Shown piece after piece: positions 31,059-45,578 of a stretch of 64,000 nucleotides of DNA. The DNA is from a virus (Duplodnaviria; Caudoviricetes). The notes below the pieces were generated by a model. It was not told the origin of the DNA, ran no database searches, and saw only the letters and a program-made list of their open reading frames with translations. The stretch spans positions 96,001-160,000 of IMG/VR virus record IMGVR_UViG_3300043177_000122. One strand, written 5' to 3'. How positions within the stretch are numbered: the first letter of the stretch is position 1; every line of letters starts with the position of its first letter. The position numbers and the translations under genes were made by a program.

Positions 31059-31738
31059 TAACTTATCCTTACCGCAAAAGCGACACCCGGTTTATTTTCT
31101 CTATAAGAAATGTATCTGAAGTTAGGGAATGTTTTAACTAGAGCATCCCAAACTCCTTGCAGACCTTCGCAATCAATTATATCATCAAAGACCATTACAC
31201 CGCCAACATTAATATGTGGCATAGTATCCATTAAGTCTTGATAGGCTCCGTCTACTGTATGATCTCCATCCACCAAGATCATATCAAACATTTTGTCTGG
31301 GAATTGATTAAAAAATGTTGACAGTGTTACATGAGAATCGCCGCTTATAAAATTAATTGGTTTTTTGTAGCCAAATTTTGCCAACTCAGATTGTACAAAA
31401 GATGGTCCAGGGTTAGCTGAACCGCCATAATTTTCATGCCATTCATCAAATGCATAAACTTCGCACTCAGGTGATGCTATAATAACTGATGCAGTAGACC
31501 ACCCCCTACGAACGCCTACTTCAAGAAAACTTTCAGGCATGATTTGTCGAGCCAGAAATGTCATAAAGGTTCTAGTTTCTGGCTTTCCATTTTTAATCAA
31601 ATCAAGTGTGTGTGGTCCATAAACAGTATCTGTTTTAATCATATCTTCTAATAAAAGAGTGTTTTTAATATTCTCGGCTGACTTAATAGCATTTAATATT
31701 TGCTCTTCTGGTAATACAGATAAATTATGAACTCTCAT
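31058..31738 (-). CDS. Class I SAM-dependent O-methyltransferase (Methyltransf_24-like)
   Basis: FLEVGVRRGWS, ILVDGDHT, DDI. Confidence 0.8.
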   Translation of the reverse strand: MRVHNLSVLPEEQILNAIKSAENIKNTLLLEDMIKTDTVYGPHTLDLIKNGKPETRTFMTFLARQIMPESFLEVGVRRGWSTASVIIASPECEVYAFDEWHENYGGSANPGPSFVQSELAKFGYKKPINFISGDSHVTLSTFFNQFPDKMFDMILVDGDHTVDGAYQDLMDTMPHINVGGVMVFDDIIDCEGLQGVWDALVKTFPNFRYISYRENKPGVAFAVRIS

Positions 31739-42773: not shown

Positions 42774-43436
42774 ATGCCATATTGTATTCGATGTTATCGT
42801 GATAAATTGTCTTCAGAAATGAAGTCTGCCAAAATATGTCTTTTGTGTGCGGCCAAACGACGAAAATATTATGATAGAAATTCTACTAATCTTAGAAGAA
42901 AATCAAAGAGATATTATAAGAAGACACGAGCTGATAGACTATCTTGGCAAAAGAATTACTATCAAACGAATATAGAAAGTAGAAAGAAGTATAATAAAAA
43001 GTACTATCAAAAACATAAAGAAGATATAATAAAGCACATAATACTGAAAGCAAAACAACGTCGTAAAAATGATCCTGTTTTTAGATTGAGAAAAAGAGTG
43101 TCTGCTGATGTTTGGAGAATGATAAAAACAAATGGTGGAACTAAAAATGGTTCTGTTATTAGGTTTTTGCCCTTTTCAATAAAAGAACTTAAAGAACATC
43201 TTGAAAAACAATTTGAACCATGGATGAATTGGAGTAATTGGGGTGTTTACAGAAAAGATATTTGGGATGACAATGATTCTACCACTTGGACTTGGCAAAT
43301 TGATCATATAATACCACATTGTAATTTTCAATATTCCTCGATGAAAGAGCAGTCTTTTCTAGATTGTTGGTCATTAACTAATTTGCGACCAATCAGCTCT
43401 AAAGAAAATCTAGAAAAGAATAGGCGAATTAAATGA
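42774..43436 (+). mobile_element. HNH homing endonuclease
   Basis: K/R-rich repeats, WQIDHIIP...CWSLTNLRP...N. Confidence 0.8.
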
Positions 43437-44224
43437 GCACCTCTAAACTAAAAGACCGTATTGAACGATATCAATCGGTTACCGACCAAAGATTACTCGA
43501 CCGAGTACCAATTATTATTTGTGTCAATGGGCGAGGTTTTTCTAAAGTAACTCAATTGCTCGACAAGCCTTATTGTCCTAAATTCGCTGAGTGCATTCTT
43601 TCCACAACTTTGCGCCTGTGTAATGATGTAGAAGGTGCTTTATTTGCTTATCAATTCAATGATGAGATTGTTGTAGTAACTCGTAATGATCAAAATATTG
43701 ATACAAATCCATGGTATGATAATAAGCTACAAAAAATCTGTTCAGTAACCTCCGCTATTGCTACCATGCATTTTAATGATTGTGCAACTACTGTGGATCT
43801 TAATATGACTGGAGACCCTATTTTTACTTCCCAAGTTTTTACGGCGCCAAATATAGGAGAAGCTATCAATACTATTATTTACAAACAGCAACAAAATTTT
43901 CACACATCTATTCAGTCTGCTTGTTTGTATGAGCTTATTAGGAAGTACGATAAGAATACCATTAAAGAAATGATGGCCGGGCTGAGCATTGATGAGAAAG
44001 TAGATTTGTTAGCACAGGAGGCAGATATTAACTTCAATGATTATCCTACCTCTTTTCGTCGAGGGGTGGCAGCCTATAGAGTTCCAATTGTATCTGGTGA
44101 ATCCATGAGGAACAAATGGTATCTCAATACGGAGCCGCCAATCTTTACCAAAGATCAATCATTCCTGACTAATATCTTTAAGAATGGCGCCGATATCTTC
44201 AGACAGGAGAGTTTTTCAAAATAA
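43433..44224 (+). CDS. Thg1-like (tRNA-His guanylyltransferase / 3'-5' polymerase) protein
   Basis: PIIICVNGRGF and AYQFNDEI motifs; first catalytic Asp appears as Asn. Confidence 0.8.
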   Translation: MSTSKLKDRIERYQSVTDQRLLDRVPIIICVNGRGFSKVTQLLDKPYCPKFAECILSTTLRLCNDVEGALFAYQFNDEIVVVTRNDQNIDTNPWYDNKLQKICSVTSAIATMHFNDCATTVDLNMTGDPIFTSQVFTAPNIGEAINTIIYKQQQNFHTSIQSACLYELIRKYDKNTIKEMMAGLSIDEKVDLLAQEADINFNDYPTSFRRGVAAYRVPIVSGESMRNKWYLNTEPPIFTKDQSFLTNIFKNGADIFRQESFSK

Positions 44225-44253: not shown

Positions 44254-44281
44254 TTGACATCTAGGCATAAGTGGTTATATT
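44254..44281 (+). promoter_or_regulatory. Promoter of the tRNA-Thr array
   Basis: TTGACA-N16-TATATT. Confidence 0.6.
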
Positions 44282-44294
44282 AGATGTACGATAA

Positions 44295-44368
44295 GCTGGC
44301 TTAGTATAATGGTATTATTCCGCTCTTGTAATGCGGAGAACCGAGTTCGATTCTCGGCGCCAGCTCCA
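44295..44368 (+). tRNA. tRNA-Thr(UGU)
   Basis: GCTGGC/GCCAGC acceptor, loop CTTGTAA, TTCGATT T-loop, U73, CCA. Confidence 0.88.
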
Positions 44369-44384
44369 AATATTAGAGTAATAA

Positions 44385-44459
44385 GCCCACGTAGTATAAC
44401 GGTTATTACCCGTCTTTGGTAAAGACGAAAATTGAGTTCGACTCTCAACTTGGGCTCCA
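44385..44459 (+). tRNA. tRNA-Thr(GGU)
   Basis: CGTCT/AGACG stem, loop TTGGTAA, U73, CCA. Confidence 0.88.
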
Positions 44460-44462
44460 TAA

Positions 44463-44537
44463 GCTGTAGTAGTACAATGGTACTGCACTTCCTTGGTACG
44501 GAAGAGACTACAGGTTCGATTCCCGTCTACAGCTCCA
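44463..44537 (+). tRNA. tRNA-Thr(GGU)
   Basis: GCTGTAG/CTACAGC acceptor, CTTCC/GGAAG stem, loop TTGGTAC, U73, CCA. Confidence 0.88.
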
Positions 44538-44538
44538 A

Positions 44539-44649
44539 GCTTTTATCTAATGCTAGTAAGACTAGCACCGGCAGAACCCCCGGTAACAGACCTGACAGTG
44601 GCAGTCGAATTAACGATAGATGGTTGAAGGATGTTTGATAAAAGTCACC
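44539..44649 (+). ncRNA. Unidentified structured RNA inside the tRNA array
   Basis: 9-bp closing stem GCTTTTATC/GATAAAAGT enclosing hairpins TGCTAGT/ACTAGCA, CCGG/CCGG and TGAC/GTCG. Confidence 0.5.
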
Positions 44650-44650
44650 T

Positions 44651-44724
44651 GCTGATATCGTATAGTGGAATTACGCTGCCCTCGTAACGCAGACACATGA
44701 GTTCGATTCTCATTATCAGCTCCA
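44651..44724 (+). tRNA. tRNA-Thr(CGU)
   Basis: GCTGATA/TATCAGC acceptor, loop CTCGTAA, U73, CCA. Confidence 0.88.
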
Positions 44725-44750
44725 TAGCTACGCAAGGAGCTATTTTTGTT
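44724..44750 (+). terminator. Rho-independent terminator after the tRNA array
   Basis: ATAGCT/AGCTAT stem with GCAA loop and T-tract. Confidence 0.65.
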
Positions 44751-44762
44751 TAAGAGGCTATT

Positions 44763-44993
44763 ATGATTCCTTTTGAAAGAGTAGCGGAATGTATTCGCAA
44801 ATTGCAAGCTATAGTGGATGTTGAATCTAATTCTCTTAAAAAGCGTACATATAAAGATCTTTTAGAAGGACTGAAGTTAGCATATGACTCTATTGTTAAA
44901 GACAATATTCCATGTCCGCCAGAAATGGAGGAATCAGTAGGTAAATCACTTAAAGTTATTGAAGATCTATATGCTAGAATTGCGTGCAATTAA
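44763..44993 (+). CDS. Hypothetical protein
   Basis: GAGG SD, 76 aa. Confidence 0.6.
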   Translation: MIPFERVAECIRKLQAIVDVESNSLKKRTYKDLLEGLKLAYDSIVKDNIPCPPEMEESVGKSLKVIEDLYARIACN

Positions 44994-45226
44994 CAAGTAG
45001 AATCATGAATAAATTATTTGATGCACTGTTGATAATTGACCATTTTGGGTGGAAAAACGATTTGGATCCAAAATTCAAACCATTTTTCGACAAGGTATAT
45101 GATTATGCCGCAAATCTTTCAGATAGCGATCTTACTAAAGAAGATTTAGCTGTTGTTTCTTTGATAGATCGTATTTTAGAAGAGAAATTTCAAGCGCGTG
45201 ATGCAAAGGATTTTAACAATAACTAA
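44984..45226 (+). CDS. Hypothetical protein
   Basis: 80-aa ORF (alternative start 45005). Confidence 0.55.
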   Translation: MQLTSRIMNKLFDALLIIDHFGWKNDLDPKFKPFFDKVYDYAANLSDSDLTKEDLAVVSLIDRILEEKFQARDAKDFNNN

Positions 45227-45227
45227 T

Positions 45228-45578
45228 GGGGATGACATAGATTCGACGTGGTTTCGAATTATCGAAATGATGCAAACAGAGGATGATTGCCCCTCCAAAA
45301 GTAATCAACGTATAAATGCAAACGATAATGCATTTGCAATGGCCGCCTGAGGGCACCATTCGTTCCTAGATAAGACTGCTTGAGTAATCAATGGAACGCC
45401 AACCCACAAAGCTGGTTGATGAATATGGCTACGATGTTCAACAACAAGATTAACAGTAGATAGCTAGCCGGAGCGAATTCTTGCAGCGTTGTTGATAACG
45501 CCAATATCAACTAAGTTTGTGAATGAGTTTTGATAAGGGCATATCGCGGACTCGGCTGCAATGCCGACATCTCCACCA
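45228..45578 (+). ncRNA. ssrA: tmRNA, tag (A)ANDNAFAMAA*
   Basis: GGGGATG/CATCTCC-ACCA acceptor with G3.U70, ATTCGAC near the 5' end, tag ORF 45318-45350. Confidence 0.92.

Follow-up and report, generated by a model that had tools for sequence, protein, structure and literature searches.

An all-threonine tRNA block within the amino-acid-sorted tRNA set of a huge freshwater phage

Why would a phage place four tRNA genes side by side that all serve threonine? Such a block occupies positions 44254-44750 of the stretch of DNA analyzed here (the window), which comprises 64,000 nucleotides and corresponds to positions 96,001 to 160,000 of IMG/VR record IMGVR_UViG_3300043177_000122. The window is part of a single virus record of 358,993 bp with 38% G+C and a CheckV completeness of 83%, and the source virus is a huge freshwater phage with a near-complete tRNA set of 57 genes. 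A sequence-only reading of the block had regarded its threonine-only make-up as unusual and proposed a Thr-specific counter-defence against a host system that destroys tRNA-Thr, with altered stems evading cleavage. The analyses reported here lead to another answer for the make-up of the block: it is a by-product of the organization of the whole tRNA set and no signal of a Thr-specific function.

The tRNA genes in the window were called with ARAGORN and with Rfam RF00005 (gathering score 29 bits). For comparison, 16 related IMG/VR loci were found via the Thg1-like protein encoded next to the block (63-90% identity), and whole genomes were compared among the record itself (G000), a 480-kb relative (G001) and a more distant relative (G002).

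Four tRNA-Thr genes in a sorted tRNA set

The presence of four tRNA-Thr genes was confirmed by both programs. On the plus strand, they are tRNA-Thr(UGU) at 44295-44368 (51.3 bits), a first tRNA-Thr(GGU) at 44385-44459 (50.7 bits), a second tRNA-Thr(GGU) at 44463-44537 (57.5 bits) and tRNA-Thr(CGU) at 44651-44724 (54.5 bits). The RF00005 scores thus range from 50.7 to 57.5 bits, far above the gathering score, and ARAGORN folded all four into cloverleaves. All anticodons are of the NGU type with G35 and U36. The structural features claimed in the sequence-only reading were also found: G1-C72, C2-G71 and U73 are present in all four tRNAs, which in addition encode their CCA end, and the D-stems are A/U-rich, displaying GUAU...AUUA in three tRNAs and GUAC in GGU copy 2. 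Positions 31 and 39 are mismatched as U31.U39 in the UGU tRNA and as C31.C39 in the CGU tRNA, and are paired as U31-A39 and C31-G39 in GGU copies 1 and 2, respectively. No tRNA of G000 outside the Thr block has the GUAU D-arm.

G1-C72 together with C2-G71 constitutes the acceptor-stem identity set of the E. coli threonyl-tRNA synthetase (ThrRS). The array tRNAs of the relatives likewise all start with GC and end with GC ahead of U73. No class-IIa synthetase domain or ThrRS gene was found in the record, which is 83% complete, so that the host ThrRS would have to charge the array tRNAs, and this would account for the retention of the identity pairs.

Grouping by amino acid is a property of the whole tRNA set. 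All 57 tRNA genes of G000 lie on the plus strand, and 28 of the 56 neighbouring pairs serve the same amino acid, against 2.64 expected, a value reached in 0 of 100,000 shuffles. About a dozen blocks were detected in all, with five Arg genes, four genes each for Leu, Ser and Thr, three each for Asn, Lys, Val and Gly, and pairs for Ala, Gln, Phe, Asp and Pro. The genome of G001 displayed the identical series and order of blocks (26/56 same-amino-acid neighbours against 2.35 expected), and sorting was weaker in G002 (7/36 against 2.0 expected). The Xanthomonas jumbo phage XacN1 has one Thr gene, and 5 of its 27 neighbouring pairs serve the same amino acid. Since the XacN1 set is mostly mixed whereas those of G000 and G001 are sorted, strong amino-acid sorting characterizes this clade, and tRNA-rich phages do not generally show it.

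Every amino acid served by several tRNAs is blocked alike, and therefore the Thr-only composition carries no special information. A check of the grouping elsewhere in the genome revealed no strong Thr excess either: five Thr genes for 6.55% of the residues amount to 0.76 genes per %, compared with 1.65 for Arg, a relative supply more than twice that of Thr. Genome-wide sorting without such an excess is the very outcome that the sequence-only reading had named as speaking against its idea. The step from an unusual Thr-only operon to a Thr-specific counter-defence is thus not supported, and an operon of this kind should not be cited in favour of a Thr-specific defence in a clade that organizes all of its tRNAs in the same way.

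The fifth gene counted as tRNA-Thr has the anticodon AGU and lies apart from the block at G000:C1:25119-25192, and G001 carries an AGU gene at the matching position. The gene of G000 has A1-U72, A2-U71, C73 and A31.C39 and no encoded CCA. It does not possess the acceptor-stem identity pairs of the array type; its amino-acid identity appears doubtful, and it may not accept threonine.

Origin of the threonine block

Sequence identity among the tRNAs depended on their distance. Genes for the same amino acid located less than 2.5 kb apart shared 59.4% identity versus 47.8% for those located far apart, and genes for different amino acids shared 44% (p=3e-6). As block-mates exceed distant tRNAs of the same amino acid in identity, shared ancestry beyond the needs of charging identity is suggested. 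Members of the Thr block are 59-70% identical to each other and 38-49% identical to the distant AGU gene. In 15 of the 16 related loci, between one and five tRNA genes came after the Thg1-like gene, and every typed one was Thr. Behind the Thr tRNA or tRNAs of these loci, a transfer-messenger RNA (tmRNA) gene was usually located and, further on, a CUA tRNA.

A tree calculated with the anticodons masked placed the UGU, GGU and CGU orthologous groups in one family with the GUAU arm, which also included the AGU gene of the relatives L001 and L003. The occurrence of several anticodons in one such family is explained by anticodon change after duplication. The orthologs of GGU copy 1 and of the CGU tRNA in L001, the closest relative, are identical to those of G000, and the UGU tRNAs of the two differ solely at positions 31 and 39 (U.U in G000, C.C in L001).

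The third slot of the block is occupied by different genes, an AGU tRNA in the closest relatives (L001-L003) and GGU copy 2 in G000; among the close relatives, its occupant is always a reader of ACY codons. GGU copy 2 was only 59% identical to copy 1 and grouped with the GGU tRNA of L006. Together with the 113-nt RNA that follows it, it forms a module common to G000 and the more distant L006. Not all members of the block therefore descend from one ancestor, as GGU copy 2 (44463-44537) belongs to another lineage. A switch from AGU to GGU by a single base (A34/G34) was ruled out because the tRNA bodies in this slot are unrelated. In L001, the place of the small RNA of G000 is taken by a tRNA-like gene (L001:7101-7178) with an abnormal anticodon loop, which ARAGORN reported as 'tRNA-???' with the two-base anticodon 'cg'.

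The best explanation for the whole locus, to which we give a probability of about 0.75, derives the Thr block from local duplication followed by changes of anticodon and the later replacement of one slot. The block would have been founded by local duplication of a phage-type tRNA-Thr with the GUAU D-arm, G1-C72, C2-G71, U73 and encoded CCA, and subsequent anticodon changes would have yielded the UGU, GGU and CGU tRNAs, as well as AGU in the relatives. Slot 3 would later have turned over, with a GGU cassette of another lineage plus the small RNA in G000 and L006. Situated in a fixed slot between the Thg1-like gene and the tmRNA gene, the block would be read from its own sigma-70-like promoter, and the transcript would presumably be processed to four tRNAs and one structured RNA of 113 nt. 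In this way the phage could decode every ACN codon with tRNAs of its own, with a doubled ACY capacity that fits its codon use. The clade would then be a clear example of a virus that builds a near-complete tRNA set by duplicating tRNA genes locally, changing their anticodons and replacing cassettes, all within slots that remain fixed and syntenic.

Anticodon stems and rival readings

The anticodon stems of the UGU and CGU tRNAs comprise 4 bp, their loop-proximal end being unpaired, and both GGU tRNAs keep 5 bp. Across the window and the 16 loci, position 31.39 was non-Watson-Crick in 24/24 UGU, CGU and AGU tRNAs (C.C, U.U, A.C or C.A) and paired in 15/15 GGU tRNAs, and the pairs from 27-43 to 30-40 were canonical in all 39. 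E. coli thrU, thrT and thrW have a paired 31-39, standard D-arms and A73. At positions 28-30/40-42, the UGU tRNA has CGC/GCG, the CGU tRNA UGC/GCA and the two GGU tRNAs GUC/GAC and UUC/GAA, so no CNG motif is present; E. coli thrU has CUG/CAG at these positions.

Judged from sequence comparison, the features of the array that had been called atypical define a common phage tRNA-Thr lineage, which is normally found in mixed arrays. A tRNA-Thr(UGU) that combines an A/U-rich D-arm with two pyrimidines at 31.39 was present in 7/7 sampled deposited phages, drawn from 232 matching records and infecting Pseudomonas, Escherichia, Erwinia, Enterococcus, Vibrio, Rhizobium and Acinetobacter. The U31.U39 arm was detected in at least 120 IMG/VR viral contigs. 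Among 60 distinct U31.U39 examples, in which U.U at 31.39 is given by construction of the search pattern, 47 had A/U-rich D-stems and only seven had a Thr neighbour, the neighbours spanning all 20 amino acids.

Two defence nucleases are known to attack the corresponding host tRNA. P2-OLD kills by cutting the anticodon stem of host tRNA-Thr(UGU) at a paired CNG motif, and Thr(GGU) is refractory and uncut while Thr(CGU) is mildly susceptible (Govande et al. 2025, PMC12445682). All eight coliphage tRNAs that rescued from P2-OLD were Thr(UGU), and their resistance mapped to the anticodon arm and required an altered CNG plus a shorter stem (PMC12445682). For the PARIS nuclease AriB, tRNA-Thr(UGU) is the prime target and Thr(CGU) a minor one, U39 is a key determinant, and cutting of Thr(GGU) was not reported; a phage tRNA-Thr(UGU) rescues from AriB toxicity (Belukhina et al. 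2025, bioRxiv 10.1101/2025.02.04.636281). The split between 4-bp and 5-bp isoacceptors in the clade mirrors the E. coli susceptibility ranking UGU > CGU >> GGU. The proposal that altered-stem tRNA-Thr replaces host tRNA-Thr destroyed by a nuclease accordingly stands in part. It has been demonstrated for coliphage Thr(UGU) against P2-OLD and AriB, and the UGU and CGU tRNAs of the block carry the hallmarks, but it is unrelated to the Thr-only arrangement, since the same type of tRNA-Thr(UGU) usually occurs in mixed arrays.

For individual tRNAs of the block, nuclease resistance is plausible, although we rate it short of even odds. With their 4-bp stems, the UGU, CGU and AGU tRNAs would probably be cut poorly by OLD/PARIS-type nucleases that attack the anticodon stem, which is the less certain part of the explanation, and the phage would then keep translating Thr codons when the host tRNA-Thr is destroyed. 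It is conceivable, if doubtful, that the 4-bp stem represents a general phage countermeasure to Toprim/OLD/PARIS-type nucleases targeting tRNA-Thr, extended in this clade from UGU to all susceptible isoacceptors (UGU, CGU and AGU), with the refractory GGU keeping its normal stem. If so, selection by tRNA-Thr-directed nucleases would be widespread and reach far outside E. coli, because tRNA-Thr(UGU) of the U31.U39 lineage is carried by phages of Proteobacteria, by phages of Enterococcus and by many uncultured viruses. The action of such nucleases could then be read from position 31.39 in metagenomes. The strict stem split and the wide spread of U31.U39 tie the data from uncultured phages to the 2025 finding of tRNA-Thr as a favoured target of defence nucleases.

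Several observations weigh against the explanation given here, both in its origin part and in its nuclease part. The duplications are old, as judged by the 59-70% identity of the block-mates, and some members may have been acquired separately; slot 3 is clearly of different origin. With respect to the nucleases, stem shortening alone gave no resistance, and the lost pair in coliphage tRNA-Thr6 was 27-43 and not 31-39 (PMC12445682). A 31.39 mismatch was found in 8 of the 57 tRNAs of G000 and is thus not restricted to Thr, and the split of 24 versus 15 stems rests on few independent lineages. Finally, 4-bp stems occur in 18.5% of bacterial tRNA-Thr(CGU), where they are proposed to widen decoding (Fakih et al. 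2026, PMC13092985).

The last point leads to the reading that 4-bp stems tune decoding and not defence. An unpaired 31.39 in U34, C34 or A34 tRNAs would adjust wobble ('extended superwobble'), for example allowing the CGU tRNA to read ACA, or would offset missing host modifications. We consider this rather unlikely. Among bacterial tRNAs, 5.6% have 4-bp stems, with the highest shares in Met(CAU), Sup(UUA) and Thr(CGU), and a 4-bp-stem tRNA-Trp(CCA) has been shown experimentally to read UGA, in bacteria and protists (PMC13092985). In the three genomes compared here, 31.39 mismatches were confined to non-G34 tRNAs (21/100 versus 0/49 in G34 tRNAs) and were carried, besides Thr, by Gln, Val, Glu, Pro and suppressor tRNAs, a pattern that resembles a wobble-base rule more than a Thr rule. 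The frequencies in non-G34 and G34 tRNAs were 8/36 versus 0/21 in G000 (p=0.02), 9/38 versus 0/18 in G001 and 4/26 versus 0/10 in G002; as the three genomes are related, these counts are not independent. A wobble-related rule fits this pattern at least as well as nuclease resistance does. However, the phage encodes every Thr isoacceptor and has no need for wider reading, the bacterial study tested mainly unpairing at the 27-43 end (PMC13092985), and the E. coli nuclease ranking accounts for the stem split equally well. The tRNA-Trp(CCA) genes in the arrays of Erwinia phage phiEa104 (L048) and Vibrio phage D483 (L050) also have a 31.39 mismatch, which may matter for these two phages given the reading of UGA by such tRNAs.

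It is also unlikely, slightly more so, that the block serves codon supply alone, matching a high use of Thr and especially of ACU and ACC against a host pool poor in these tRNAs. The number of tRNA genes correlated with how frequent the amino acid is (Spearman 0.67, p=0.001) and with the degeneracy of its codons (0.71). Thr codons were counted as 3398 ACT, 1157 ACC, 1920 ACA and 568 ACG, so that ACU and ACC make up 65%, and it is the ACY readers that are doubled, with the constant ACY reader in slot 3 of the closest relatives pointing in the same direction. Yet codon supply gives no account of the conserved non-Watson-Crick 31.39 or of the coordinated change from C.C to U.U, and Ala, Val and Gly have fewer genes at a similar demand of the ACY kind.

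A dedicated Thr-specific counter-defence unit, whose Thr-only composition would itself be adaptive, is very improbable: tRNA-Thr(UGU) is indeed the preferred target of two defence nucleases from which phage tRNA-Thr rescues, Thr has the most genes per % of residues among the four-codon boxes (0.76 versus 0.30-0.66) and is the sole box whose tRNAs have U, G and C at position 34 (and, outside the block, also A), and the block lies among the tRNA-maintenance genes for the Thg1-like protein, tmRNA and Pth2, but all amino acids with several tRNAs are blocked alike, Arg is supplied more than twice as well, the duplicated anticodon is GGU, refractory in E. coli, and not the nuclease target UGU, and other phages use tRNA-Thr(UGU) of this type as a single gene in mixed arrays.

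Flanking elements and relation to known systems

The spacer between GGU copy 2 and the CGU tRNA encodes a conserved structured small RNA on the plus strand (44538-44650, 113 nt) with a closing stem and the invariant loop motifs GGCAGAACCCCC; GACAGUGGCAGUC..ACGAUAGAUGG. A homolog is located at the matching position in L006 (L006:8047-8159) and shares 77% identity over L006:8056-8157, with compensatory changes in 8 of the 31 predicted pairs and no change in the loop motifs. A covariance model built from the spacer RNA (R1) detected a third, more divergent copy at L039:3539-3662 (E=8e-4), and an exact scan of viral contigs for the loop motifs found the L006 contig only. On a metatranscriptome contig of a further relative (X24 record 8), the first GGU tRNA is joined directly to a homolog of the spacer RNA. 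Processing of the tRNA ends would presumably release this RNA. An undescribed small RNA that rides within a tRNA block is a new detail.

The spacer RNA matched no Rfam family at E<=10, the Y-RNA models included. An assignment as YrlA/Y RNA was rejected on this ground, and the RNA also does not have the GGUUCGAnnCC T-arm mimic of the genome's handle RNAs. Membership in the handle-RNA family was rejected as well, as model R1 gave no match to the handle RNAs in L017-L019; the four handle RNAs were poorly alignable with MAFFT and no family model was built from them.

The block had been described as a unit reaching from promoter to terminator, and the two ends fared differently. A sigma-70-like promoter, TTGACA-16-TATATT, is located at 44254-44281 on the plus strand with 11/12 consensus matches, and both hexamers are conserved in L001, L002 and L003. 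At the other end, a weak hairpin followed by five U (44724-44747, plus strand; RNAfold -5.6 kcal/mol) might act as a leaky terminator. The hairpin itself (44724-44743) has 6 bp including two G-C pairs and was not accepted by the terminator scan.

The surroundings of the block are a tRNA-maintenance island. A Thg1-like gene of the tRNA 5'-end repair and 3'-5' polymerase family is located at 43433-44224 on the plus strand (PF04446 Thg1, E=4.2e-17, 62.7 bits) and ends 70 bp upstream of the array. About 500 bp downstream of the array starts a tmRNA gene (45228-45578, plus strand), which was missed by ARAGORN in the window and detected by RF00023 at full length (104.2 bits, model positions 1-374). 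Its tag, ANDNAFAMAA, corresponds to the C-terminal end of the translation of the open reading frame (ORF) at 45198-45350, and ARAGORN gave an identical tag for L002. In L002 and L005-L008, too, ARAGORN placed a tmRNA on the downstream side of the Thr tRNAs, directly 3' of the CGU tRNA in L005 and L006; in the window, two small conserved ORFs (44763-44993 and 44984-45226) lie between the Thr block and the tmRNA gene. Beyond the tmRNA gene follow a Pth2-like gene, two tRNAs with CUA anticodons and a tRNA-Arg(CCU). An RNA-ligase-family gene is located inside the main tRNA region at G000:C1:37508-38026 (PF09414, 31 bits) and together with the Thg1-like gene points to a putative tRNA-repair toolkit. 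Neither an SmpB nor an RtcB domain was found in the 83%-complete record.

Some other tRNA genes of these genomes are unusual. The 57 tRNAs of G000 cover 19 amino acids and include no tRNA-Trp, the gene for which may be in the missing part of the incomplete record. G000 has two CUA tRNAs, and TAG is the stop codon in only 25 of its 427 long ORFs. A solitary tRNA-Arg(CCG) at G000:C1:57094-57167 is 74% identical to the tRNA-Gln(UUG) at 31361, the highest identity between tRNAs of different amino acids in the genome, which suggests a putative anticodon change on a Gln-type body. In G001 (L024-L026) and G002 (L039) unusual anticodons were found, namely an ochre-reading UUA tRNA, which in G001 separates the Ala block from the Gln block, and the A34 tRNAs Phe(AAA), Tyr(AUA), Pro(AGG) and Leu(AAG).

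A megablast search of the region against deposited phages gave no match, and the whole stretch was present in only two metagenomes, its probable sources. Contigs from RNA libraries, derived from relatives 90-97% alike, span parts of the tRNA genes, of the spacer RNA and of the tmRNA gene, but neither transcription nor transcript ends or levels can be read from such contigs.

Sets of tRNAs in phages, phage tmRNA and phage tRNA-Thr that resists nucleases are already known. What is new is that the block architecture extends across the clade, that 4-bp stems are specific to certain isoacceptors, that the U31.U39 lineage is so broad and that a small RNA lies in the block. The tRNA set as a whole resembles those of other huge phages (Al-Shayeb et al. 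2020, PMC7162821) and of XacN1, in which tens of tRNAs (67 being the highest number reported) occur together with tmRNA, genes for tRNA repair and suppressor tRNAs. It differs from the 28 unique tRNAs of XacN1, which are mostly mixed with runs of two at most, as this clade forms blocks of up to five and reaches 50% same-amino-acid neighbours.

The bacterial 4-bp-stem tRNAs of Fakih et al. share with the block one open terminal pair of the anticodon stem and tRNA-Thr(CGU) as a frequent carrier; that survey covered bacteria and no phages, and the role it proposed is in decoding and not in defence (PMC13092985). The widespread lineage, represented by Pseudomonas phage M5.1, Escherichia phage ukendt, Erwinia phage phiEa104 and Enterococcus phage phiEF17H, agrees with the array in the GUAU-type D-arm, G1-C72/C2-G71 and a pyrimidine-pyrimidine 31.39. 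It has A73 and is encoded as a single gene, alone or in a mixed array, whereas the array has U73 and has been duplicated into several isoacceptors. The resistant tRNA-Thr(UGU) described by Govande et al. and Belukhina et al., compared by its described hallmarks, has in common with the UGU tRNA here an altered anticodon arm without CNG at 28-30/40-42, four stem pairs and the retained identity pairs. The unpaired position is 27-43 in tRNA-Thr6 and 31.39 in this clade, where the feature is shared by CGU and AGU tRNAs and occurs in a Thr-only block.

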